Under the pieces are notes generated by a model, which had not been told where the DNA came from, did no database searches, and worked only from the letters and a program-made list of their open reading frames with translations. The position numbers were made by a program, and so were the translations under genes. Positions 4,125-43,748 of a stretch of 63,920 nt of DNA are shown piece by piece (the stretch's first letter is position 1; each line of letters begins with the position of its first letter). Source of the DNA: a virus (Duplodnaviria; Caudoviricetes); the IMG/VR virus record IMGVR_UViG_3300044464_000029, positions 1-63,920 of that record, one strand, 5' to 3'.

Positions 4125-7100
4125 GATACTCAAAAATTTATTTCTCCGTACAGTCACTGAGACTCCACCCTGCCCAAAGCCTTTTCTCGCGTCAGCGACC
4201 CGTACAGCAGGCGGCAAGCCCTATCCTGTGGGGTTCCACCAGCTACACCGTCAAGATCAACGATCTTGTTAACAGAACCCCACAGGTATGAACTAAGCCT
4301 TATTACCTGTTACATACTCAAAATGATTGCAAGCAAAGACATAACACTGAGTCCAGGTACATCCTCTATCTTGGGCGCTCTGTGCTGCATTCATAACTGT
4401 CTTGGTTAGTTCACTGAATTTGTAACCAAATGAAAGAGGTGTCTTACCTTCAATTTCTAGTAGTTGGTCAATAGTCCAACCAAGCTTTTCTAACACCCTG
4501 CCAATGAGACAGCTAGCACAACCATTATCTACATAGTAACACTTTGGCCACGAACGTTCGCCGTGTGCTATTCTTTGATAGGTAAAGTCACTACCTGCTT
4601 CATCAACAACTTCACGCATAATCCCTAAAACGTGCTTACACTCTTCAATAGTTTCATCACTAAACTTTGCCATTTTTTCTCCTACCTGTTACTTACTTTT
4701 TCAACGACTTCTTGGTCCCATTCTTCGTCAAGACCACCTACGCGAACAATAAGTCTACCGCGTGTTAGGATCTCTTGTACCTTGCCCCATGTCTTACCAG
4801 ACTTGACCATTGATCCTACATAGATCCTGTCCATTTTGCTCCTTATTAATAGTACATTACCACACTGGTGTCTAAACCAGCATGATAAAACACTATTAAA
4901 GCATAATAAGACTGCGCCACCTAATTTTATTGCACTTGGTGCAAGTCTTTTCTTGGTAGTGACAGATCACGTTCCATACCTTTATTTCGCTCCATTTTGT
5001 GTAATTATGCCAACAGAACATTAATATGTCCTCCGTGTCTTGACTTTACCACACTTAATACATTCTTTCTTTTGATAAAGATAAACTATGCTTAAGTCAG
5101 CAACAGGATCAAACCACTCTGTGTATTTATGCCAGCAAAACATTAATGCCTCCAATCACGATATCTACGAAAGAACAACCATAACACCCAATTTGGCGTC
5201 GAAATTATTATTCCATTGATTTTCTTCCAACTAATTTCGTCTTTCAATACTGCATGACCATTCTCTTCTGCGTATGACCAATGCAATCCGCGACTTATCA
5301 AATTCCAACGTGTTCGATGGAAATAATAGAATTTTTTAAGCAACGTAGTTTCCATTCTTGTCTACGTTCGCGAGCCGATGTCCGTCGACAAAGAATACGT
5401 AGTGTGTAAATGCTCTGTTCGTTTGGGTCTTGCGATCAACATTTTGTGCATTTACATTCTGGTAATAAACTTTTGGAACACCATTTGTATTCCATTCCAG
5501 TACAATGACCGCAGTATAGACATCCATTCGTTTGTGTTGACCATGCAGCGGTCCACCGGAAAAACGCATTGTTGAATAGGCAGGACCGCAATTTTTGATG
5601 TGTCTGGCTTCTGACTGTGACTCAATATAATCACCACAATCACAATTTTCCATACCATATTTACAGGACATTTACCACTCCAATATAGTTAGTTGTACAA
5701 CACAACGCAGGTGCTAGACCCACATCATGCAATGCAACTAAGTCCATTGCTTTGGATATGCTCCACCATTAATCAAATTTTCATCTAGTTGGTCAACCTT
5801 GCTACATAGTTCATAAGCGGCATTGTGCCATTCACTATCACTGTTAGTATTCTTCATTACTCCCAGAAGCTGCCTGATCTCTTCGAGCGTTTCTGTTGAA
5901 TTGAACTCAGCCATATTCTATATTCTTCCTCAGCTCTATAATGTTTCTGCCATAAATCCTTTATACCACTCATAGTGGTCATACCACAAGTACACAAATG
6001 CATAGTAACTCGGCCGAATAAGCCTACCTTTTTGACTGACACGAAATGTTCGTAAGCGGCCGTGTGCCACTCGTCTGGAATAAAACCCAAAAGCCTTACT
6101 CCTATCTATTAGATATCCAACACAACACAGGCATTGCTATCCTGTATCATGCAAAACATCTAAGCTAATCTCAACGCTTCCTGCTGGCCGTACACAGCAA
6201 GCGTGACATGCCAGCGATCATTCTCATGACGCCAACCTTCACTCCAACTGTCTTTGACATCATCACAGTATTGGATGAAGTCATTCAAAAATCGATGTGC
6301 ATGTCCATTCTTTAGTTCTACTTCAGTAAAGGTGAACTTAGCAATTACCTTTTCCATCACGGTACCGGATCATTCTTCGGCCATTCTCCGCTGGCTTGTA
6401 GCCGTTCTTTTTCTGCACGTCGTTCTACAGCTTCATTTTGTAGCTTCTGATTGCGCAAGAATTTTTCTTGTGCTTCATTAAGCTCTCGCTGTGAACGTTG
6501 TTCGTCTGTCTCATCAGCCACGATCAATTACCTCTGCATTTCTGCGGTTGCATTCTTCAGAAGCTTCTTCGTAAGTGTCAAAATCCACAAACACATAGGC
6601 AGTACCCTCTTCTATGTGTTTAGCCCACTCACTGAACAATGCTACACGGTACTTATCTGTTGGATTCGAAATGCTATTTTGAAAAAGAATCACATACGCA
6701 TCTGCTACTCCGTATGTGATTCTAGCCATTGGTATCTCCAACGTAAACATCTTGGGAGGTAACTGTTTCACTGAAGTCGACTTCTTCATATTCCATCGCT
6801 TCAGTAAAGAGATCCATTCTCTCATCATGACTAAGATCTCCCGTACACTTGATTGCTTCTTCAAGCGTCATATTAGGGTAATGTTCCTGATCGAACGGTA
6901 CCTTAGTAACAAGAGTAGCCGTTCTACGAATAACAATTTCCTTCTTTGTTTCCATTCTTATAACCTCTTCAACTTCGTTGTGATGTTTCCAAGGACAATT
7001 ACACCCACATCGGATGCAATCAGTACAGAAACACACGGGCCAGTCTGCATAATCCATTTTATCTCCTAACTAATAGTACATGACGGCACCCGCAGACACA

Positions 7101-15299: not shown

Positions 15300-15386
15300 T
15301 TTGTCCCCTTTGATGAGGACATGCCCACATAGATCTACATATGTCTTACATGTACGGATATAAGGAGATATGGGCTAGATGTCCGA

Positions 15387-15644
15387 TTAGTTCTTTACGA
15401 TCCAGAATGTGATACCAGGTCCGTAAAATATGAATGCCCATTGGTCCGGATCATCCATAATGCCCTTGTCGCCGTAGATGTCGTTAATGTCCGAAATAAC
15501 TTGGATCCATTCTGGCATATTAGAATCATCCCGGGCAGTTAGGGCAAGGTTGCGCAAAATGCGCATACCCTTACGAAATGTGACATCTCCGGCGAAAGCG
15601 AAATCTTCATAGCCATCGTGCTCAAAGCCAACAGACCATGACAT
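15387..15644 (-). CDS. Hypothetical protein (IR cassette 3)
   Basis: ORF with AGGGG RBS enclosed by IR pair. Confidence 0.7.
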   Translation of the reverse strand: MSWSVGFEHDGYEDFAFAGDVTFRKGMRILRNLALTARDDSNMPEWIQVISDINDIYGDKGIMDDPDQWAFIFYGPGITFWIVKN

Positions 15645-15853
15645 AATAACCCCTGTCCGATTTTGTCAGCCCATATCCCCATATATCCGTACATGTCCCC
15701 CTCCCCCTATATGTCTGAATTTTGCCCATATAGTCGAGAATGCTACAGGGTCCGCCGATTCCTACCAAAAGTCCCAATTCCTTAGGACTCTTATAGGGGT
15801 TCCGCTCGGTATGCACCTTATGTGCACCCTGTGGGGTCTTATCCCTTTCGCCA

Positions 15854-15877
15854 CTTTTGAGTTCTTAAGTTACGATT
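15854..15877 (-). promoter_or_regulatory. boxA-like leader element (second copy 17892-17915)
   Basis: AATCGTAACTTAAGAACTCAAAAG vs AATCGTTACTTAATAACTAAAAAG (21/24 identical), each between a candidate -10 (TAGACT 15926-15931; TAGAAT 17996-18001) and the first cassette. Confidence 0.5.
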
Positions 15878-16055
15878 GTCCGCTTTGGGCGGGACTGCCC
15901 TTTTTCTTTTTTCTTTTTTCTTTTAAGTCTAGCACGGACGATGTCGGAAATTCCCGACTTATCATGCTAAACCGGACATTCTGAAAGTGTGAGTTAAATC
16001 ACACCCAAAATATCATGATTTAGGAGCTTTAGACCGTCATGTCCGGATTTATCAA

Positions 16056-16241
16056 TTACAGTGCGATTTGGGCGTTACGTCGAATTTGGTACATTTTGAC
16101 CACAATGTCCAATTGGCGGTCAATGACGTTAATGTGCGGTTCGTTCATTATGCACAGAAAGTTCTGCTTGTCCATTTTGTCCAAGAAGTCCATCATGCGA
16201 CGAAACTTCCCGATTGTGACTCTTTCTGCTGCTTTTTCCAT
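16056..16241 (-). CDS. Hypothetical protein (IR cassette 4)
   Basis: ORF with AAGGA RBS enclosed by IR pair. Confidence 0.7.
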   Translation of the reverse strand: MEKAAERVTIGKFRRMMDFLDKMDKQNFLCIMNEPHINVIDRQLDIVVKMYQIRRNAQIAL

Positions 16242-16336
16242 TTTTAGTCCTTTGTCCGATTTGGTCGGACATGACGGTTTAGAACTACTAAAGCATGAAT
16301 TATCCTGGTTTAGAAGGCTATGTCTGGTTTGTCGTT

Positions 16337-16552
16337 TTAGTCCTGTGAGCGGTTTTTGCGCCTTTCATCCCGAATTAAGACAAGTGCCCGGTATGTGGCC
16401 AAAACGTCGTCTTCGTCCTTAATGCCGGATTTGACTACTTCGTCGTAAATGGCCTCATTTGTCCAAGTTGAGAGCAATCGGCGTGATATGCCCGTATAGA
16501 CCTTCATGTGCACTTTTGGGGTGGATGTCCAGAGATATGGCAATGTTACCAT
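16337..16552 (-). CDS. Hypothetical protein (IR cassette 5)
   Basis: ORF with GGGAG RBS enclosed by IR pair. Confidence 0.7.
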   Translation of the reverse strand: MVTLPYLWTSTPKVHMKVYTGISRRLLSTWTNEAIYDEVVKSGIKDEDDVLATYRALVLIRDERRKNRSQD

Positions 16553-16646
16553 TTTAGCTCCCTATGTCCGATTTATCCAGACATAGCCCTTTAGACCAGG
16601 ATAATTCTGACTTACTACCTTTTGTCCGGCATGTCTGATTTGCGGA

Positions 16647-16799
16647 TTAATTCACTATAAGAGTGGAAGTGTCCGACATCGCCCAGATAAGCAACATAAT
16701 GAGTGCTATGTTGAACAATGCGGCAATTATTACTTCTACGTGCTTTGTCGCGAATGTCTGAATTGACCAGGTACGCACGTGCTTGCCGTGATATGCCAT
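16647..16799 (-). CDS. Small membrane protein (IR cassette 6)
   Basis: MAYHGKH...; one hydrophobic helix; AGGGG RBS; enclosed by IR pair. Confidence 0.65.
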   Translation of the reverse strand: MAYHGKHVRTWSIQTFATKHVEVIIAALFNIALIMLLIWAMSDTSTLIVN

Positions 16800-16911
16800 G
16801 GTATTCCCCTTTTGTCCGATTTTGGCTGTTTTGGCAGACATGCCGGATAAGAGGTAGTAAGTCTTTAATGTGCCACATGTACGGATATAGCAGGATATGT
16901 CCGATTTCGTC

Positions 16912-17148
16912 CTACTGTGTGATGTTTTGGAACGATTCGGCCGCATTCAGCCAGCTATGCGAAGAATGCCACCATTTGTCCGTTCTGTCCTCTGAGTCCC
17001 AAATGACCACATAGAACCCATTGCCCATATTGTCGCATATGTCCAATTTGACCACTACGACCGTATTGTCCGAATTGTAGTAGTGTGGCGCAAATGCCAC
17101 GATCTGCCCGTATTTCTCCATTTGCGCAATAACATCCAGAATGTCCAT
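16912..17148 (-). CDS. Hypothetical protein (IR cassette 7)
   Basis: ORF with AGGAG RBS enclosed by IR pair. Confidence 0.7.
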   Translation of the reverse strand: MDILDVIAQMEKYGQIVAFAPHYYNSDNTVVVVKLDICDNMGNGFYVVIWDSEDRTDKWWHSSHSWLNAAESFQNITQ

Positions 17149-17243
17149 CTTTGTACTCCTATGTCCGATTTATTCGGACATATCCTGTTAAATCCGTACA
17201 TGTCCAGAATTATCCAGGTTTGGGAGGGTATGTCCGTTTTATA

Positions 17244-35100: not shown

Positions 35101-35286
35101 AACATGAGTTTAGTAGCAAATGCATCTAGCTTAATTGCATCAGCAGTTGGTCCGACTACCCCTGGTGTAAATGGTTCTACGGCTACTGGACGAACATATA
35201 ACCAGCAAATTACAATCAATACGCAAGAAATTAATCCACGACGTCAAGCCGCTGAACTTGGTTGGCTTCTACAAGGGAGGGCCTAG
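32110..35286 (+). CDS. Tape measure protein
   Basis: 1058 aa; TP901-type core, Trp-spaced repeats, hydrophobic segments, PHSPAKIGPLSG. Confidence 0.92.
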   Translation: MPFSATRDLWLVLKARDEGARAMRTFARDVRMVGDSVTQANMQAARSALRNQLAMQRMTGATQADQIATMKRIQTIDQQINQSKIHRASLEETRISAQKLSSAMSGAAATMTAVGTGMVAAGVLGVAGIKSLVDSAIDYQKQASLTRTQVDKFAASLKDIEDIGLRVANKIGVPFAQIQPALFDIFSSLEIGTKDAERLLEIFAKAAVAGQTDIQSASRATIGILNAFQLPLTSVNHLMDLQFQLVQEGVGTYEEWTQRIGLVSPSAVRAGQSVETMLAALAATTRQGISAARSGTAVARAFDAMSNPNAVEAMKAMGVNALDASGKFRPIIDVLGEFRTQITKLPQSERIAKILEVFKGAGGTIEARRFLQNMLLTPGNLEQFKSIFEEMSNESGSFEKAYSIMAESAATKSELLSNKWETLKVKAGEALIPTFLKVVGALGSLFDWFNKLDPSTQSMIATSTALFLALTGVGGILLILVGTLAAFIAAVVVAGSSLFVVLGILSAVGIAVVAFGVGLAIAWKNSANFRGIIQDLGKKMEDFYKNYIVPTGLAIKEAWEKNMQPALSALADIIEHKILPVVRDFNNFLASELFKSAMEVGNNIKDFLVFAFEKLGSIINTMIIPVIQKLTQYYHDHEETIKQVATWMIFLGKWIAKIALIFGAILAVVLIGPVVAAFVAVIAVIGAVIGIIVFLVEAVKAIIHWFGTEVPKAWGALVDAAKATWNAIASFFVELWNNIASFFVGVWNNIVGIFNTVMGVLAAAWNTFWNSSIGGLIKAVLGAIWAFIKLIFVSIQFTILVVLKAIEDAWNFTWNAMKNGAMIIWNFIFPFLKDTWEKISGGAKLIWQSISDFWNFIWTGVKNAATVIWNATVGFIIGKWNEIKAAASAIWNAVHAGIVGPVDKSNDKIVSVWNSIKEFFSNTGSWLFNAGKNLIQGLIDGITSMVNKVTDKINEITQKIKDHFPHSPAKIGPLSGKGGMYFAGQNITKQLYQGMQSNMSLVANASSLIASAVGPTTPGVNGSTATGRTYNQQITINTQEINPRRQAAELGWLLQGRA

Positions 35287-36149
35287 TGACTATTGGGCTT
35301 TCTGACTATCAATTTCAATTGAATGATACAGGCGTCTTGCTCAATGGTAACGATTCAGCAACTCCATTTGTAGATGTTGAACGAGTGGCCGGGTTAGATT
35401 CACCGCCGTTTCGTGAGACGGTTCGAGATCATGAAGGCGTAGATGGTGGTTTCATTGATGCAGAATTTGAAAAAGGTAGAGAAATAGTTATAGAAGGTAC
35501 AGCATATTGTGATATAAGTAGTGTTGAACCTTTCATTGATGATCTAAAAGCAAATTATGCTCCAGTAACCACACCTATACCACTCTATTTCAAATCTTCT
35601 GGAGTTGATGAACGAGTCATTTTTGTTAAACCAAGAGGTGCTAGGTTTGACTGGGAAACAATGCGTCGACTTGGTATGACTGCAATTCAATTCTTAATGT
35701 ACGCCGAAGATCCTCGAATTTATACAAATTCACTAAGTTCAACAACAATTAATTATGGTGGAGATACTGGAATAGGTTTTGCTTTCAGTGTTGCTTTTAG
35801 CCTCGATTTTGGTGGTGGAGCAACACCTGGTGGTGCCAATGTTACCAATGATGGAAATAGACCAAGTCCTTGTGTTCTAACCATCACTGGTCCGGTTATA
35901 AATCCAGTAATTTACAACAACACCACAGGTAACGTTATCAGATTTACAATTGAACTTGCTGCCATGGATACACTCACCATAGATACTGGTAATAGAACGG
36001 TGTATCTTAATGGTAGTATAAATAGACGCAACACAATGACCAATCCAGATTGGTTCTTCATCATTCCTGGTGTTAATCAAATCTTGTATGGTGGACTAAC
36101 TGGTACTGGTAGTACGCTAAATGTCGCATTCAGATCTGCTTGGCGTTAG
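35286..36149 (+). CDS. Distal tail (Dit) protein
   Basis: Follows tape measure; AEDPRIY, ITGPVINP and C-terminal FRSAWR. Confidence 0.8.
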   Translation: MTIGLSDYQFQLNDTGVLLNGNDSATPFVDVERVAGLDSPPFRETVRDHEGVDGGFIDAEFEKGREIVIEGTAYCDISSVEPFIDDLKANYAPVTTPIPLYFKSSGVDERVIFVKPRGARFDWETMRRLGMTAIQFLMYAEDPRIYTNSLSSTTINYGGDTGIGFAFSVAFSLDFGGGATPGGANVTNDGNRPSPCVLTITGPVINPVIYNNTTGNVIRFTIELAAMDTLTIDTGNRTVYLNGSINRRNTMTNPDWFFIIPGVNQILYGGLTGTGSTLNVAFRSAWR

Positions 36150-36158
36150 GAGAATAAA

Positions 36159-37211
36159 GTGACAGTTGCAAACCCTCCTGGCTTCTTGCAGAATGCCGGA
36201 GCTACACATACTGCTGAACAGTTTCGCAACTGGACCAGTATGGAATATGCAGGTAAGAATGGTGCTACATCATTAATTACTCGTGGTGGGGTAAATCCTA
36301 ATCTTGGAAATCAACTTAGTGTAACACAAACAGGTTCACCGTCTATGGCAGTTATAGTTAAAAATGGTCATGCTGTTATTCCAGGCACAGAAGGTTCCAA
36401 GCAAGGTGGATATTCTGTATTCAATGATGCTGATGTCACACTAAGCATTGGTGCGGCACATGCTTCTTTGAACCGTATTGATAGTATTGTTTTCAAAGTT
36501 GAAGACTCTGCTTATTCTGGTGCCAACAACACAAGCTCGTTGGTCGTTGTAGCTGGCACACCAGCATCATCACCAGCCGCACCTACCTTACCAGCTAATT
36601 CAATAGAGCTTGCTAGAGTTTCTATTCTTGCTAACGACACTTCAATAACAACTGGTGAAATCACAGATCGGCGATTCTTCCTCTGTGGGCTCGGTGGCAT
36701 TATTATCGCTACCAGCTCAACAAGACCCGCTGGTACCACCGTTGCTGAAGGTCAAACAATCTACGAAACTGATACTGATTCCATTTATTCTTATGACGGC
36801 GCAACTTGGAATCTTGTTTGGATTCTTGGTGCTTGGACTACTTATGCTACGACATGGACGTCTACTGGTACTGCTCCTGCTATCGGCAATGGAACACTAG
36901 TTTCCAAATATCGTCAAATAGGTAAAACCGTACATGTACGAATTACAATAACGATGGGTTCCACAACTACTTATGGTGGAGCTAACTTCTGGACACTTTC
37001 GCTACCTGTTACTGCTGTAGCAGATAAGCAATGTGGAGTTGCTGTGTACGAGGATATAGGCATTCTCGATAGGTGCGGTGCTGTATACACCTTCTCGACG
37101 ACTCAACTGGCAATGGTGACCTCGGCCGGTGGTGTTGTAACTAGTACGACGCCGCACACCTGGGGCAACACAGATGTACTTATAGTGAATATAACTTACG
37201 AGGCAGCCTAA
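36159..37211 (+). CDS. Minor tail protein
   Basis: RIDSIV...VVAGTPASSPAAPTLP...ITDRR pattern of actinophage minor tail proteins. Confidence 0.8.
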   Translation: MTVANPPGFLQNAGATHTAEQFRNWTSMEYAGKNGATSLITRGGVNPNLGNQLSVTQTGSPSMAVIVKNGHAVIPGTEGSKQGGYSVFNDADVTLSIGAAHASLNRIDSIVFKVEDSAYSGANNTSSLVVVAGTPASSPAAPTLPANSIELARVSILANDTSITTGEITDRRFFLCGLGGIIIATSSTRPAGTTVAEGQTIYETDTDSIYSYDGATWNLVWILGAWTTYATTWTSTGTAPAIGNGTLVSKYRQIGKTVHVRITITMGSTTTYGGANFWTLSLPVTAVADKQCGVAVYEDIGILDRCGAVYTFSTTQLAMVTSAGGVVTSTTPHTWGNTDVLIVNITYEAA

Positions 37212-37212
37212 A

Positions 37213-38349
37213 ATGGTAGAATCATTAGAGCTGTTAAGTATTTTAGATCCAATAGATACACCTCCAATAGAATACAGATACATCTATGGTAGCATGCTGA
37301 CAGAAGAAGTTATCGAAGAGATTCCAACTTATGGCGTTTTCATGGATATGGAAATGAATAAGGGTGGACAATTCCAAGGTACATATCAACTAGATCAAAC
37401 TGGAAAAAGCAATGAGAGCTTAGTTGCTGCTAGTATTCCAGGTAGAACTTGGGTTGCGGTAGAACGCAATGGAGTTTGCATTTGGCATGGTTATATTTGG
37501 AGTAGAGTATACTCTGCACAGTCAAAATCACTACAGCTATATGCGCTTTCGTTTGAAAATGTTCCTTCAAAAAGATTAATTCGATATGATTTGAATTACA
37601 CTGCAATCGAGCAACGAAACATATTTAGAGATTTATGGACAAATATGCAAACTGGCACTAACTGCAATGTTAACGTAAACGTACCAACAGCTTTTAGCGA
37701 TGTTGTTTTGAAAGATTTAACTGGATTTGCTACTGACTTCAAATATTATGATGAAGCAATGACACAAATTGCTGATTCTGTAGATGGTTTTGATTGGTTT
37801 GTTTCTGTTACTAAAGATGGTACTAACTATCGAAAAGATTTGAACATAGGATATCCAACTCTTGGTATCAATCAAGCAAACAGCACAATAGTATTTGAGT
37901 ATCCTGGTAACATAATTCAATATTATCTAACCGAAAGCATAATCGACGCTGGCACAAATGTATTTGTTATTGGTGGCGGTGAAGGTTCTAACATGATCAC
38001 TGCGGAAGTTGTTGATCCAGACATATTTAGTCAAGGTTGGCCAAGGTGGGATGTAGACATCACAAGGAAAGATGTTAGTTCATCTGATGATATCACTGCA
38101 TTAGCAAATCAAATGTCACAAATTAGAAAACCTCCAATGAGTGTGATAAAAGTTACGATCAAAGCTAACCTAGCACCAGAATTTGGTAGTTACAGTTTGG
38201 GAGATACTTGCCAAATTGTCATCAAGGATCCACGTAATCCAACGATATTTAGTCAGTACAAAAGAATTCTAAAATGGGAATTGCATCCAGCATCTTCAGA
38301 TTCTGTTGAAGAAGTTAATCTAATATTCGAAGGTGATCCAGATGTTTAG
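37213..38349 (+). CDS. Minor tail / baseplate hub protein (ReqiPepy6 Gp37-like)
   Basis: ERNGVCIWHGYIW, FEYPGNI and GGGEG motifs; synteny. Confidence 0.75.
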   Translation: MVESLELLSILDPIDTPPIEYRYIYGSMLTEEVIEEIPTYGVFMDMEMNKGGQFQGTYQLDQTGKSNESLVAASIPGRTWVAVERNGVCIWHGYIWSRVYSAQSKSLQLYALSFENVPSKRLIRYDLNYTAIEQRNIFRDLWTNMQTGTNCNVNVNVPTAFSDVVLKDLTGFATDFKYYDEAMTQIADSVDGFDWFVSVTKDGTNYRKDLNIGYPTLGINQANSTIVFEYPGNIIQYYLTESIIDAGTNVFVIGGGEGSNMITAEVVDPDIFSQGWPRWDVDITRKDVSSSDDITALANQMSQIRKPPMSVIKVTIKANLAPEFGSYSLGDTCQIVIKDPRNPTIFSQYKRILKWELHPASSDSVEEVNLIFEGDPDV

Positions 38350-38354
38350 GAGTT

Positions 38355-39074
38355 ATGATGGCTGACACAGGTAGATATCGCACTGAACCTGAAGATCTTC
38401 TTACTAAAATACGTAACTTGGAAAAGCGAATATCCAAGCTAGAACGCAGCCCACAGCTACCATCATCGGCTATTGATTCACAAGGAATTGATATTTTCGA
38501 TGGTGCTATTCGGGCACGTGATGCTAGTGGAACAATTGTAGCACAATTTGGAAAGCAAGACGATAGTACCTATGGTGTAACAGTACTTGAAAATGGCGAA
38601 ATGGTTCCACCAGCAGCACTGCTGAATCATTATGTTTATGCAGATACTGTATCAGTACAGGAAACCTATACTTCAACTAGCTTTGGTGATTTAGCTACCT
38701 TTGGTCCACAAGTTACTGTACCAGTTAGATCAACTGGTAGAATCTTGGTTATCTGTACAGCACAAATGCAGTGGGTCTCTACTGCATTTGGAATTTCAAT
38801 TGCGGGTGGTGGTTGGACCACGATACAGATGGATGGTCCAGCAAACTTTATGACTACAGCAACAGCATCAGTAGTATTACTTCCGTCATTCAACGCAACA
38901 CATACTGTTACTGCTGGTACAATTGCCGATGCTAACCAAGTTACCACTACTGCGGCAGAAGTTTTTGATGGATTGAATCCTGGTGAAACAATCATCACTA
39001 TGAAATATCGTAACCAAATTGGTGGTCAGAACATTGACTATGGACGACGCACGTTAGTAGTCATTACTTTGTAA
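38355..39074 (+). CDS. Minor tail protein
   Basis: N-terminal coiled coil LEKRISKLER followed by beta-rich domain. Confidence 0.7.
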   Translation: MMADTGRYRTEPEDLLTKIRNLEKRISKLERSPQLPSSAIDSQGIDIFDGAIRARDASGTIVAQFGKQDDSTYGVTVLENGEMVPPAALLNHYVYADTVSVQETYTSTSFGDLATFGPQVTVPVRSTGRILVICTAQMQWVSTAFGISIAGGGWTTIQMDGPANFMTTATASVVLLPSFNATHTVTAGTIADANQVTTTAAEVFDGLNPGETIITMKYRNQIGGQNIDYGRRTLVVITL

Positions 39075-39126: not shown

Positions 39127-39786
39127 GTGGACAGATGGGTCAAAAATACTGTCATGCTAGCAGTATTGTTAGTGTGGTTCGTATATATGTTAACGAACTT
39201 GGTAAGAGGTGTCCTGCCTGAACCAGCCCTGTGGGGCGTTCCAGGTGGGATTTGGCTCGCTTTAAATCCTCCATTTATTGGACGCTCCAATAAAACTCAG
39301 GAGATTGAAAAGTGAGCTATGTGACTCAATCCCTCGTATACGTCGTGTTATTTTTAGCGCTTGGTGCGCTAATAGGTTTCATTGGTGTTGTTGCCAAGGA
39401 ATCTAAAAGGAGGACAAATGGCGGTAAACGTTAAAAGATGGATAGGCAGCGATATAGTCGAAGTTATTATCAGAATAATTGTCATATTAACAGTATGCGC
39501 TGCACTATTCCTCTTTTTTAGGCAAAACAGTATAGCTACTTGTCAAAGTGCGTATAACCAATCGTATGCAGAATATGCACTCGATGCAAGAAATGTTCGC
39601 GATTCTGACGATAAAGTCAGAGACGAATTATTCAGAACATTATATGCAGCTAGAACTCTTGACAGTGTTGCAGCACAAAAGCAAATAGACGCGGCATTCG
39701 TGAAATATTTTACCACAATCGAATTAACAAATAAACAAAGACAAGAGAATCCTGCACCAGCGTTACCTAATGATTATTGCGGGTGA
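39127..39786 (+). other. Three small membrane-protein genes (39127-39315, about 39312-39434, 39418-39786), possible lysis accessory cluster
   Basis: Each has 1-2 hydrophobic helices; overlapping start/stop codons. Confidence 0.55.
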
Positions 39787-39790
39787 TGAC

Positions 39791-40141
39791 ATGACAGCTA
39801 CTAGACTAGATATCTCAATTGAACAAGGTGCCAAGTTCGAACGTAATATTCTTGTTAAAAACAACAATGGCACTGTTAAAGATCTAACTGGATATTCAGC
39901 TAGAATGCAGATTAGACCAACGTTCGCTTCCGATACAGTTTTATTAGAAGCGACTACCACCAATGGTCTAATAAGCATTAACAGTCCTGGTGGTGTTGTC
40001 ACCATTAGCTTGACGGCTGATGTAACAACAACTTTGGATTGGAGTGTTGCTGTATACGATCTAGAAATATACAGCAGTGTAACGGAAGTAATTCGCATTC
40101 TAGAAGGTAGTGCTTCTCTCAGTTTGGAAGTGACTCGATGA
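39791..40141 (+). CDS. Virion Ig-like (BppU N-terminal-like) protein
   Basis: IEQGAKF...DLTGYSARMQIR...YDLEI pattern. Confidence 0.65.
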   Translation: MTATRLDISIEQGAKFERNILVKNNNGTVKDLTGYSARMQIRPTFASDTVLLEATTTNGLISINSPGGVVTISLTADVTTTLDWSVAVYDLEIYSSVTEVIRILEGSASLSLEVTR

Positions 40142-40998
40142 ATGGTTTATTCGAAAAAGGACGTGAAGGATTCCTCGATGGCAGCATCGATTGGGATACT
40201 GACACGATCAAGGCAGCCCTGCTTGACCTTGGTACCGCTGATACTGGTATCAAGGCAATTGTAAGCTCGACAAATGCTACTCCAATTGTAGTAACAGTGA
40301 CATCACATGGATTTACTAACGGTGACTTTGTATTCATTGATGGGCATACAACCAACACTGCTGCCAATGGTTATTGGAAGGTTGCTAATCAAGCTACCAA
40401 CACAATTGAATTAACTCGCCCGGATGGTACAAACTCTGTGGGGAATGGTGTCGGTGGTGCTACTGGCTACGCCGTCAACTATGGTCCTAGTACTTCTGGC
40501 GACAACTATGATGACTTCAATGGTGCTGTAGTTGGTACCGATCAAACTCTTGGCACAAAAACAGTAGTTGCAGGTGTAGCTGACGCTGCCGATGCTACTT
40601 TCACATCAGTTACTGGTAACTCAGTTGAAGCAGTACTACTCTACAAAGACACTGGTACACCATCGACATCAAGAGTAATTGGTCTTATTACAGGTAAGCA
40701 GATTGTTACTTGTGCAGTACAGGCTGCATCATCTTCTACTTCTATTGTAGTTGATGCACTGACGTATGCAATTCCTTCCGGAACTGTATTAGCATTTAGC
40801 AATGGTGCTTCTGCAACACTATCTTCACTTGCTACGGCTGGAGATCGTTCCATTGCAGTCTCTTCTACTGCTGCAACGATTACGGCAAACTCACGTGCTC
40901 TTGCACCTATTACAGGTTCTGGACTTCCTGTAACTCCTAATGGTGGTAACATCGTGGTTACGTGGGATAACGGGGCAAATAAGATATTCAAACTGTAA
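40138..40998 (+). CDS. Tail-associated structural protein
   Basis: IDWDTDTIKAAL...LPVTPNGGNIVVTW...IFKL pattern with inserted beta modules. Confidence 0.7.
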   Translation: MNGLFEKGREGFLDGSIDWDTDTIKAALLDLGTADTGIKAIVSSTNATPIVVTVTSHGFTNGDFVFIDGHTTNTAANGYWKVANQATNTIELTRPDGTNSVGNGVGGATGYAVNYGPSTSGDNYDDFNGAVVGTDQTLGTKTVVAGVADAADATFTSVTGNSVEAVLLYKDTGTPSTSRVIGLITGKQIVTCAVQAASSSTSIVVDALTYAIPSGTVLAFSNGASATLSSLATAGDRSIAVSSTAATITANSRALAPITGSGLPVTPNGGNIVVTWDNGANKIFKL

Positions 40999-41017
40999 AG
41001 ATAAAATATAAAAGAAT

Positions 41018-41527
41018 TTGCTGATCAAGATGATATCAAATGATTTCAAAATTGGATGGATTGTAGGAATAATAGAAGGAGAAGGATGGATAGGCAGTGA
41101 CAAAGATGGTAGACCTAAAGTTCAAGTTGCAATGACTGATAGAGATACAATATACAAATTACTGGAGTGGGCAGAAACTGGAATAGTATCAGAGTCAGAT
41201 TGTGGAACTATTACTGGTAAAAGAATTTGGAAATGGGCAATCTATGCTAGAGAAGATGCAGGAAAATTTATTGAGAAAATATTACCTTATCTAGGTACAC
41301 GTAGGAGCGAAAGAGCTATAGAAGTTTTAAACAAATGGAAACTCTTAAAACCAAAACATGGTACCTCAACAACATGTAAACGTGGTCATGAATTGTCTGG
41401 AGAAAACTTATATATTGATGTTAGCCAAGAAAAATATCCTAGACGGCGTTGTAAGAAATGTATGGCCATAAGAGTCAATCAGTACAAGGAAAGATGGAAG
41501 GAGAGGTTGCAACATGCTTCGAGGTAA
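41018..41527 (+). mobile_element. Free-standing LAGLIDADG-type endonuclease with C-terminal Cys/His domain
   Basis: WIVGIIEGEGWI motif; VAMTD; ILPYL; CKRGH...RCKKC; AT-rich; flanked by duplicated target-gene end. Confidence 0.8.
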
Positions 41528-41576
41528 CGGAGCGAACAAAATTTTCAAACTCTAGTGAAAATGGTGAGGTGCTACC

Positions 41577-43748
41577 ATGGCCACACCTCCTACCGTTGTA
41601 AGTAGTGGTGTATTAACTGGGTCAACTTCATGGGGAACTGATAAACCAAAGACAGCTTCCGTGACTGTCGCCTCTGGTAACATACTAGTAGTGTGTGGTA
41701 TTGGAGGCGACTACGGTAGTGCGGGTGATGATTTCTCAACCCCCACAGGGGGCGGACTCACTTACACATTAGCGCAACAACATCAGCTAACTCTAAACTC
41801 ATTTCCATGGACTTGGACCGCAATAGGTAATAGCTCTACACCATTCACATTGTCTTTGACTGTACCAACAAATTCACCAAGATATGGTTGCTTCTACGTA
41901 GTTCTATCCGGGTCTGATGGTGTTGGTGCAAGTGATAAAAACAACGGGTCCGGCGCTTCTACCGTAAGCTTAACAACTACTCAGGCCAATTCACTAGTGA
42001 TTTGTTCTGTGGGAGACTGGGATGCTACCAATGGTGATGCGACAAGAGTATATCGAACTGTAAATGGTATAACACCTGTTCGTGCTGGTGCTGGTGAAGT
42101 TACTTATAACAGAACTAGTGGTGAATATACAGCTTATGGTGCGTATTGGACAGATGCTGGTGCTACTGGTTCTAATGCCTATGGTTTCACTACGCCATCG
42201 GCTGGTGTCAAATATACCACAATTGCAATTGAAATCAAAGGTTCAGCTGCTGGTGGCACACAAACAATTAATGCAAATGGAATAGTGTCTGGTGAAGTAT
42301 CTGGTACGGCAACGATTTCAGCAACTTATACAGTAGATGCCAATGGTGTAATATCTAATGAAGTAGCTGGTTCACCTACAGTTTCTGCTACTTATAACAT
42401 CGTTGATAATGGAATTACATCTGGTGAAACTATCGGAGCTGCCACATTAACTACTAATTACACAGCTAACGTAAATGGTATAGTTAGTAGCGAAACACCT
42501 GGTTCTCCAACTGTAACATCAATTTACAACATTGGCGACACTGGTATTGTTACTGGTGAAACGTTTGGTTCTCCAACAATAACTACAACTTATACATTAG
42601 ATGTACAAGGAATAATTAGCCAAGAAATTACTGGTAACAATCAAGCAGTTGCTGGTGCTGCAACTATTCTTGCTAATGGCATTGTTAGTCAAGAAATAAC
42701 TGGCACACCAAGTATAATAAACGCATTCTCACTTAACACTGATTACATTGGAAGCAGCGAAAGATTTGGTGCTACTGCTGTTACAGCCGGAGATGCAACA
42801 ATAGCTGCTGGTGGAATTGTAAGCCAAGAATATATTGGTGATAATCAACTAACAACTACAATTACAATTGCACTAAATGGAATTGTCAGCCAAGAATTAT
42901 TTGGCACCGCTACAAGTACTGCATCGGTTGATGCTAATGGAATAGAATCTGAAGAGAATTTTGGTTCTCCAGCTATAACAACTACAGCGACGATAAGTGC
43001 AAGTGGTATAATTTCTAATGAGCTTTATGGCAACAACAATGTTTCAACGGGTATTGCTCCTGTAACGGTTGATGGGATCGCAAGCCAAGAACTTTTTGGC
43101 AGTCCAATACTGTCGGCAACTTATACAGAAAATGCCAATGGTATACCAACAAATGAACAATTTGGTGCTACATCTATTACAACTATTTATACACTAAATA
43201 CAGAAGGAAAGACAACAGATGAAAAATTTGGTTCCGCAGTAGTATCTGCAACCTACAGTGCTGCAATAGCTGGAATAGATTCTACAGAGAAATTCGGTTC
43301 ACCAACAGTTACGCCAGGTAGTTTGACAATAAATGCTGGTGGAATCAATTCTGATTCTAGCTTTGGTTTACCAAGTTTTGCTGAAACTGTCACCATAAAT
43401 GCTAGTGGCATTATATCCACAGAATTATTTGGACGGCAGGTAGTAGGAGCCACCTACGAGTTAATTGGGTCGGGAGTCGAGAGCTCGGAGCGGCTAGGCA
43501 ACGCGCTGGTGATGGCAGGATCGTTCACTGCCTCTGTTAGTAGTGCGGTTAGCGGCGAGATTTTCGGCAATGCCACAGCAGTACTAGGAGAAGTTCCACA
43601 AAGCATATTTGCGAATGGAATTAAAACTAGCGAATTTGTTGGTACACCACACACTGGCAAGCAAGTATCAATAGATGCAGTAATGACTCTACCAAGCGAC
43701 ATAATTTCTATTGTGATGGAAGACGATGTCTTGGTCACAATAAGCTAA
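41577..43748 (+). CDS. Tail fibre/adhesin with tandem ~22-aa GIxSxExFGxPT repeats
   Basis: About 20 degenerate repeats visible in the C-terminal two thirds. Confidence 0.75.
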   Translation: MATPPTVVSSGVLTGSTSWGTDKPKTASVTVASGNILVVCGIGGDYGSAGDDFSTPTGGGLTYTLAQQHQLTLNSFPWTWTAIGNSSTPFTLSLTVPTNSPRYGCFYVVLSGSDGVGASDKNNGSGASTVSLTTTQANSLVICSVGDWDATNGDATRVYRTVNGITPVRAGAGEVTYNRTSGEYTAYGAYWTDAGATGSNAYGFTTPSAGVKYTTIAIEIKGSAAGGTQTINANGIVSGEVSGTATISATYTVDANGVISNEVAGSPTVSATYNIVDNGITSGETIGAATLTTNYTANVNGIVSSETPGSPTVTSIYNIGDTGIVTGETFGSPTITTTYTLDVQGIISQEITGNNQAVAGAATILANGIVSQEITGTPSIINAFSLNTDYIGSSERFGATAVTAGDATIAAGGIVSQEYIGDNQLTTTITIALNGIVSQELFGTATSTASVDANGIESEENFGSPAITTTATISASGIISNELYGNNNVSTGIAPVTVDGIASQELFGSPILSATYTENANGIPTNEQFGATSITTIYTLNTEGKTTDEKFGSAVVSATYSAAIAGIDSTEKFGSPTVTPGSLTINAGGINSDSSFGLPSFAETVTINASGIISTELFGRQVVGATYELIGSGVESSERLGNALVMAGSFTASVSSAVSGEIFGNATAVLGEVPQSIFANGIKTSEFVGTPHTGKQVSIDAVMTLPSDIISIVMEDDVLVTIS

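Follow-up and report, generated by a model that had tools for sequence, protein, structure and literature searches.

We analysed the virus record IMGVR_UViG_3300044464_000029, a metagenome-assembled phage sequence of 63,920 bases (63.9 kb) that is called the window throughout, and describe a duplicated gene end that brackets a predicted free-standing homing endonuclease gene of the LAGLIDADG family. A phage tail module surrounds the locus, and all of its features given here are on the + strand. The conserved tail-module gene in front of the endonuclease, here called gene X, extends from 40138 to 40998 and encodes 286 amino acids (phrog_644, E 1.9e-22). Its last nine codons and its stop codon form copy A (40969-40998), the functional gene end. 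Behind it lies an A+T-rich spacer of 31 nucleotides (nt; 40999-41029), whose final ~15 nt resemble the spacer of the related locus L086. The endonuclease open reading frame (ORF; 41030-41527) has 165 codons, begins with ATG 41030 or alternatively with an in-frame TTG at 41018 in the spacer, and ends with a TAA (41525-41527). This stop codon shares two bases with the first codon of copy B (41526-41555), a second end of gene X that is most likely an untranslated relic. A spacer with a ribosome-binding-like GGTGAGGTG follows (41556-41576); it looks native and is similar to spacers found in relatives without the endonuclease, such as GGGGGTGCTAC-ATG in L005. The next gene (41577-43748) encodes a tail-fibre-like protein of 723 amino acids with many NGIVSxE-type repeats, which matches phrog_13352 (minor tail protein).

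Copy A is spelled AAC GGG GCA AAT AAG ATA TTC AAA CTG TAA and copy B AAC GGA GCG AAC AAA ATT TTC AAA CTC TAG. Both encode NGANKIFKL-stop, and 7 of 10 codons (7 of 30 bases) differ, each of them silently. A repeat finder returned the pair as 37 nt (40968-41004 and 41525-41561) with 76% identity and a longest identical run of 8 nt, taking in the stop codon and about 6 bases 3' of it. The match between the copies is not due to chance. When a 15-residue profile of the gene end was run over the window, copy A scored 58.9 bits, copy B 9.6 and the next position -5.2, which places copy B second among 127,752 positions. Only three nine-residue peptides occur twice in the six-frame translation of the whole window, and inverted DNA repeats near 15.4-16.9 kb account for the two others. 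The identity to copy A drops to chance level upstream of 41525. We considered a copy B that continues upstream under the endonuclease tail ERWKERLQHASR and rejected it: this tail resembles that of a distant homologue in L093 and therefore belongs to the enzyme.

By motif, profile and fold the ORF is a member of the LAGLIDADG family. The motif GWIVGIIEGEGW occupies residues 9-20 (41054-41089) with the acidic residues E16 and E18; in an alignment of 12 relatives GIIEGEGW is invariant (12/12), as are E16, G17, E18, G19, W20 and I21. Pfam LAGLIDADG_3 matches residues 6-84 with 21.6 bits, just under the cut-off of 22.5, and the homologue in L003 clears this cut-off with 26.7 bits. Among PHROGs, phrog_5046 was matched with E 2.6e-17. 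A profile of the 12 relatives retrieved I-HjeMI (E 2.8e-11), the bI3 maturase (1.5e-10), I-AniI (2.2e-10) and I-CvuI (6.5e-4) from the PDB. The AlphaFold2 (AF2) model, with a predicted local distance difference test (pLDDT) score of 88.5, has helices (H) and strands (E) in the order H4-18, E19-23, E29-35, H38-48, E52-57, E65-71 and H74-87, i.e. the alpha-beta-beta-alpha-beta-beta-alpha order of the LAGLIDADG core fold. Foldseek gave I-CreI, I-CvuI and I-MsoI as the best matches of this model (E ~1e-5, probability 1.00). With a single LAGLIDADG domain the enzyme probably acts as a homodimer, by analogy with such homodimeric enzymes. Relative to L003, the proportion of differences is 0.25 at nonsynonymous sites (pN) and 0.76 at synonymous sites (pS), which indicates purifying selection on the ORF. 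The G+C content of the ORF (41030-41524) is 36% compared to 45% for gene X and ~41% for the window, similar to a deficit of 6-10 points in L003 and L086.

Behind the nuclease domain the enzyme carries a C-terminal Cys/His module (C116, H120 ... C141, C144; 41375-41461), which in the model consists of two short strands and a long helix. Residues 108-162 are matched by phrog_1492 and phrog_826, and at this module the query shares 58% identity over 22% of its length with P0006, a Pfam HNH_3 protein. The module also terminates HNH-type phage endonucleases; this DNA-binding module (41375-41524 in the window) appears to have been shuffled between nuclease families. Relatives of the enzyme carry the annotation 'HNH endonuclease' though they are LAGLIDADG proteins. 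The family is rare: a collection of 5.8 billion proteins yielded 6 matches including the query itself, and from cultured phages only LittleE gp14 and a protein of a NATL2A-133 cyanophage match, with 27-34% identity. No further copies were found by a single-protein scan of IMG/VR or by a scan of GTDB genomes. IMG/VR scans with alignment A2 returned the L003 contig alone and those with alignment A5 the L003 contig and the distant relatives L099 and L100. A distant homologue with 30% identity occupies a lysis cassette of L093 (2700-3734), with a spanin-like, membrane-anchored ORF on one side and a lipoprotein-like ORF on the other; this is a different target context for the wider enzyme family. 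In L089/L090 (913-2130) two-domain LAGLIDADG ORFs have an N-terminal Cys-rich region, and the copies of the two-domain type in L091, L094 and L096 are interrupted in their second half by several stop codons.

Gene X consists of a family core of ~133 amino acids, two inserted domains and a very conserved C-terminus, ...VTWDNGANKIFKL. The inserted domains comprise about residues 32-110 and 200-258, and fold searches relate the first to the FCCH domain of ubiquitin-activating E1 enzymes. The last 28 amino acids are 75-82% identical to gene ends in phages of Mycobacterium, Pseudomonas, Shewanella, Pseudoalteromonas and Bacillus; F116-like Pseudomonas phages are among those with the motif. Across 80 IMG/VR loci with a genome G+C content of 32% to 70% the gene end reads ...(D/N)I(I/T/V)V(T/Q)WDNGANKIFKL-stop. 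The model of gene X (pLDDT 89) found no match in the PDB at E 0.001 or better; the weak fold matches include a 105-residue chain of the Bxb1 tail tip (9d93_Ra, E 0.027). We refer to the product as a tail-module protein. An exact 37-mer of gene X, used as a check for near-identical relatives, is absent from IMG/VR. The downstream fibre-like gene (41577-43748) varies between relatives: its repeat part alone finds matches, with 27-40% identity, and the N-terminal 220 amino acids have no relatives in IMG/VR. The repeat part comprises some 25 tandem units of ~17-20 residues of the type NGI(V/E)S(Q/G)E..G... For the downstream genes of the window and L003, no DNA alignment can be made and tblastn finds no match.

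The distribution of enzyme and duplicate was surveyed at 80 of 110 IMG/VR relatives of gene X. A strong gene end was defined as a match of at least 21.7 bits to the 15-residue profile with a stop codon behind it, and three enzymes served as tblastn queries against L003-L082. Of the 79 loci L004-L082, 75 show at least 700 nt of downstream DNA. An endonuclease match was lacking in 77 of the 79, the exceptions being L014 and L016. Exactly one strong gene end is present in every one of these 79 loci, and two ends are found only in the window and in L003; seven extra profile matches scored 5.5-6.4 bits, had no stop codon and were located upstream or on the opposite strand. The initial annotation, which had been made from the letters of this DNA alone, held that endonuclease-free relatives should not have both copies, and a second gene end was indeed found in 0 of the 77 endonuclease-free loci. 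Together with L085 and L086, five intact enzyme copies (window, L003, L014, L085, L086) and one remnant (L016) were identified, all of them 0-52 nt behind the same gene end. These loci range from 41% to 70% G+C and include long and short forms of gene X.

The closest relative is L003, a 110-kb IMG/VR contig with an 81% identical gene X and a 157-residue enzyme homologue of 62% identity. Its copy A, ...VTFDNGPNKIFKL-TGA, overlaps the ATG of the enzyme homologue, and its copy B (5325-5372) reads VTWDNGVNRIFKL, i.e. I M V T W D N G V N R I F K L-TGA. The two copies of L003 differ in protein sequence too (F/W, P/V, K/R), and each variant residue occurs among endonuclease-free alleles. Copy B comprises 9 codons in the window and at least 15, perhaps up to 35 by tblastn, in L003, and the junctions of endonuclease end and copy B differ between the two. 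In both loci the part next to the cassette is degenerate and the distal part is pristine. L014 (384-850), a contig of 70% G+C, has an intact enzyme of 154 amino acids whose ATG overlaps the stop codon of gene X (TGATG) and no second gene end. The G+C content of this enzyme (0.69) equals that of its surroundings, and the association is therefore old. In L085 the enzyme (43% identical) begins 52 nt behind ...TFDSGANKIFKL-stop, and profile scans recognised no second gene end behind it; a candidate for a decayed copy B (TFNDGVQVIIEI) was dismissed as it was not among the best scores of these scans. In L086 the enzyme begins 17 nt behind the gene end and the contig terminates inside the enzyme gene. 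L016 (4403-4501) retains the last 33 codons of the enzyme (..NLKICDGGRRRCRKCAAAR..AA-stop) directly behind the stop codon of gene X and in its frame, again with no second gene end; this stretch is a decayed remnant, and loss is in progress.

The anatomy of the locus speaks against splicing. The only non-coding sequence of the cassette in the window is the 31 nt in front of the endonuclease ORF, with none behind it. In L003, where the endonuclease ATG shares bases with the stop codon of gene X and copy B contains the endonuclease stop, there is no non-coding sequence at all. There is therefore no room for a ribozyme. Copy A supplies gene X with the same C-terminus as in all relatives, so no splicing is needed to complete the gene. 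The endonuclease ORF has its own start codon behind the stop codon of gene X and is located outside any intron or intein. The initial annotation had described two silently different gene ends at 40969-40998 and 41526-41555, a LAGLIDADG gene between them and an element that does without splicing. The first statement is exact, and the other two agree with the motif, profile and fold of the enzyme and with the anatomy outlined above. It had also spoken of an element that repairs the gene it invades; the endonuclease is a free-standing gene behind the stop codon and not inside the gene. A group I intron or another self-splicing element with copy B as the true last exon would find a precedent in the distant relative LittleE gp14 (27% identical), which is located in a putative group I intron of a capsid gene, but Rfam gave no match at E up to 1 between 40000 and 42200 and gene X ends canonically at copy A, which leaves this explanation next to no chance.

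Our interpretation is that a free-standing homing endonuclease gene settled behind a conserved tail gene and that copy B was left over when a break was repaired with poor homology on the right side, which we consider probable but by no means settled. The common state would be that of L014, L085 and L086, where a free-standing endonuclease gene directly follows the stop codon of gene X. The gene end ...WDNGANKIFKL, which is shared by phages of many hosts, is the kind of sequence that homing endonucleases target. The data show how the locus is built, to which family and fold the enzyme belongs, which relatives have it and that the divergence of the copies is ordinary, whereas cleavage of the empty allele, the route of repair and the parental origin of each copy are inferred. 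The enzyme probably cuts in or beside this gene end in phages that lack it. The broken genome could then be repaired from an endonuclease-bearing genome, whereby the cassette would be copied in. On the left side gene X would offer good homology, and on the right side the variable fibre gene would offer little or none. A right-side join with little or no homology could leave the cut-off gene end of one of the parents behind the cassette. The outcome would be a cassette bracketed by a diverged direct repeat of the last 30-48 bases of the gene, as in the window and L003. The silent differences between the copies would then represent the normal divergence of two alleles, each of which had been under selection at the protein level. 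As a side effect, the copies would be too unlike for easy recombination.

Several observations weigh against this interpretation. A copy B is present in only two of the four intact loci with visible downstream DNA (window and L003 versus L014 and L085). The duplicate is therefore a by-product of some insertions and no fixed part of the element, as which the initial annotation had regarded it. The two loci with a copy B are also each other's closest relatives in both enzyme and gene X, so that one ancient event inherited by both is possible, although copy B should then have decayed. Over the last 57 codons of gene X the window and L003 reach a similarity of 0.78-0.85, compared to 0.56-0.78 for six relatives that lack the endonuclease and 0.59-0.68 for L086, which has it; between the window and L003 it rises only mildly toward the cassette, with no sign of a recent transfer. 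A comparison of the two B copies shows differences at 9 of 10 third codon positions, but at only 4 of the 20 first and second ones, and a retained stop codon. Judged from the sequence, this divergence is the mark of coding constraint at the protein level. Three explanations could account for a constrained copy B, namely two separate events, periodic exchange with functional alleles or a function of its own, and break repair with poor homology requires one of the first two. Moreover, inspection by eye revealed no convincing pseudo-palindrome at either junction and none common to the empty alleles, and a palindromic target was consequently discarded.

A further point against it comes from sequencing run X3, which contains contigs of a very close relative with 0-5 mismatches per 150 nt in gene X and ~94% identity in the downstream gene. 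One X3 contig of 151 nt consists of 24 nt that fit copy A and not copy B, 7 other bases and then the window's sequence from 41563 onward. With a threshold of 31 nt per side for a bridge, the 24 nt on its left do not make this contig count as one, and X3 has no contig over 41070-41480. The contig is only a hint that an A-like end can directly abut the downstream gene of the window. If the X3 phage were without the endonuclease, copy B would not simply be the displaced end of the window's own phage. Among the sequencing runs listed as holders of this sequence there is none of RNA.

A second reading, which we regard as possible and somewhat on the unlikely side, takes copy B as the right-hand homology arm of the cassette that would be refreshed by exchange with functional alleles. 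The fibre gene is hypervariable, and the conserved gene end is therefore the only right-side sequence common to nearly all target phages. Exchanges of this kind would replace the distal part of copy B, which would explain its constraint, the degenerate proximal and pristine distal parts, and the differing junctions. If this reading was true, the cassette could home into phages with unrelated downstream genes and could survive swaps of the fibre module that cross over in the conserved gene end. The selfish gene would thereby have a simple route across mosaic genomes, which would also be of relevance for the engineering of phage tail modules.

The initial annotation had favoured a different explanation, in which the element carries a re-spelled gene end and the silent changes are selected to prevent self-cutting and recombination between the repeats. 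Every difference between the copies in the window is silent, identical runs reach at most 8 nt in the window and 7 nt in L003, and free-standing phage endonucleases are known to leave their own genome uncut because its target sequence differs. However, the silent divergence between copies A and B is ordinary and at background level. Of the 79 loci, 46 end exactly in NGANKIFKL-stop, for which they use 34 distinct spellings; in the 561 pairs of these natural 30-mers 5.3 of 10 codons differ on average, and 27% of the pairs differ at 7 or more. This proportion rises to 36% of the allele pairs of low-G+C loci. Whichever alleles of gene X or of the enzyme are compared, synonymous sites are saturated (pS 0.69-0.80), and endonuclease-free phages hold spellings within 3-4 mismatches of copy A and also of copy B. 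The low similarity of the copies should hinder deletion by recombination, and no special selection is needed to explain it. In addition, the copies of L003 differ in amino acids, which points to two alleles of different descent and not a designed recoding, and L014 and L085 have the enzyme with one ordinary gene end. Selected recoding is thus improbable in our judgement. A related candidate was a signature of immunity: the endonuclease-free close relatives have ATC TTC AAG CT in common, and all six endonuclease-linked copies deviate from it silently. We rejected it since the spelling follows the genome G+C content in 80 gene ends, including low-G+C empty loci, which deviate silently in just the same way.

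It is likewise doubtful that copy B is functional and under selection, be it as a coupled short ORF, as a ribosome relay that restores the native stop context or as a right-hand homology arm. The coding-like divergence with the stop codon in place would agree with a function, as would the degenerate cassette-adjacent and pristine far parts in both loci. Furthermore, both loci carry, where the endonuclease ORF ends, an ATG that is in frame with copy B. In the window, ATG 41514 is preceded at a distance of 7 nt by GGAGAGG (41500-41506) and could, speculatively, open a micro-ORF of 13 codons (MLRGNGANKIFKL; 41514-41555). In L003 the ATG begins one base before the endonuclease stop TGA and opens an ORF of 14 codons (5328-5372) that ends in the conserved peptide, but no ribosome-binding-like sequence precedes it. 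Only two examples exist, and L014, L085 and the remnant locus L016 do without a copy B. A fusion of endonuclease and copy B by frameshifting was rejected because the frame offset is +1 in the window and -1 in L003, which leaves no common frameshift route.

It appears very unlikely to us that insertion and duplication happened only once, in an ancient ancestor shared by the window and L003, and that purely vertical descent followed, with an immobile enzyme and a copy B that slowly decays as a fossil. The loci with a copy B are sisters for both enzyme and gene X, their neighbouring genes are syntenic at ~50% identity and nearly identical transfer tracts were not seen. Yet with saturated neutral sites a neutral fossil of 30 nt should not retain 7 of 9 residues and the stop codon. 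In addition, the enzyme is intact and under purifying selection, and its family occupies this one site in phages with 41-70% G+C, next to long as well as short forms of the gene. Finally, the window is a metagenome-assembled record, but an assembly artefact that joined endonuclease-bearing and endonuclease-free strains has almost no probability given that L003, an independent contig of another sample and of differing sequence, has the same layout and that a 151-nt contig of sequencing run X2 (possibly from the same sampling campaign and hence no independent support) runs from the endonuclease end through copy B into the next gene with 100% identity to 41498-41648.

The tail module upstream of gene X contains genes for a Dit-like protein (35262-36149), minor tail proteins (36159-39074) and a protein of 123 amino acids (39770-40141, phrog_1084), all assigned by matches to PHROGs. 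A scan for promoters and terminators between 39700 and 42000 gave one promoter-like and one terminator-like site, not above shuffled sequence; the promoter-like site (41045-41073) falls inside the endonuclease ORF, and the spacer at 40999-41029 has none. A search for transfer RNA genes found none. Inverted repeats form an array at 15348-17200 with at least 5 pairs, whose arms of 27-33 nt are 85-93% complementary and 197-291 nt apart. They have motifs such as ACATGTACGGATAT and GGACATG in common, are located in a region of strong negative AT skew and give the appearance of repeated stem-forming boundaries around small units.

Overall, one conserved site displays several stages in phages of 41%-70% G+C: an intact endonuclease gene with a relic, an intact gene without one, a decayed remnant and empty sites. 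It ties a rare family of LAGLIDADG enzymes with a Cys/His module to a short and almost universal candidate target, the end of the phrog_644 gene. The candidate target is defined and short, and the specificity of the enzyme should therefore be easy to test. The site also falls where a conserved gene gives way to a variable fibre gene and where phages swap modules. Annotators are likely to be misled by the short second copy of the gene end and by the label 'HNH endonuclease' that members of the enzyme family carry.

Among known enzymes, the homodimeric single-motif endonucleases I-CreI, I-CvuI and I-MsoI have the same fold and motif as the enzyme of the window. They differ in that they share only 16-19% identity with it, are encoded in introns of organelle rRNA genes and have no C-terminal Cys/His module. 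The distant homologue gp14 of LittleE, a Cluster J mycobacteriophage, is 27% identical over 74% of the query and clears the Pfam LAGLIDADG_3 cut-off like the L003 homologue. Unlike the enzyme of the window it is, according to its annotation, encoded on the opposite strand in the putative intron of the capsid gene and has another target (see also PMC3706429).

Free-standing endonucleases of T4-like phages offer a closer parallel in mobility, and Belle et al. (2002) reportedly dealt with their intronless homing. According to the abstracts on SegF, SegB and MobE (PMC2988022, PMC2790892, PMC2330249), their genes lie between other genes with no intron or intein and are present or absent among related phages, as is the case here. 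Spread by cutting a nearby conserved gene with co-conversion of the flanks, as outlined in these abstracts, would also be expected here. In contrast to our locus, the T4-like enzymes of these reports are of the GIY-YIG or HNH type instead of LAGLIDADG, and homing in our case is putative. Their abstracts mention no duplicate of the end of a target gene.

The closest match in layout is found in fungal mitochondria, for which a rps3/LAGLIDADG case by Sethuraman et al. (2009) is said to belong to the systems with a duplicated gene end. Our search of an open-access library turned up no phage in which a duplicated 3' end of the target flanks the endonuclease, which is no proof that there is none in print. 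For the cob and atp6 genes of Endoconidiophora resinifera, endonuclease ORFs followed by a duplicate of the C-terminal part of the gene have been outlined (PMC6279837), and for Ophiostoma minus an atp6 intron that comes with a duplicate of part of the downstream exon (PMC7902536). As far as the excerpts of these reports go, the fungal type corresponds to the window and L003 in the order of gene, LAGLIDADG ORF and duplicated 3' piece and in a whole upstream copy that needs no splicing. Both types also agree in that the duplicate is missing where the endonuclease is missing (0 of 77 loci here). Set against the same excerpts, our case differs in its phage host and tail-module target gene, in an intact single-motif enzyme with an extra Cys/His module and in a duplicate of only 30-48 nt. 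It further differs in that related loci (L014, L085 and the remnant L016) have no duplicate, which is hence not a constant companion of the enzyme. The layout described here is known from fungal mitochondria and unusual in a phage.

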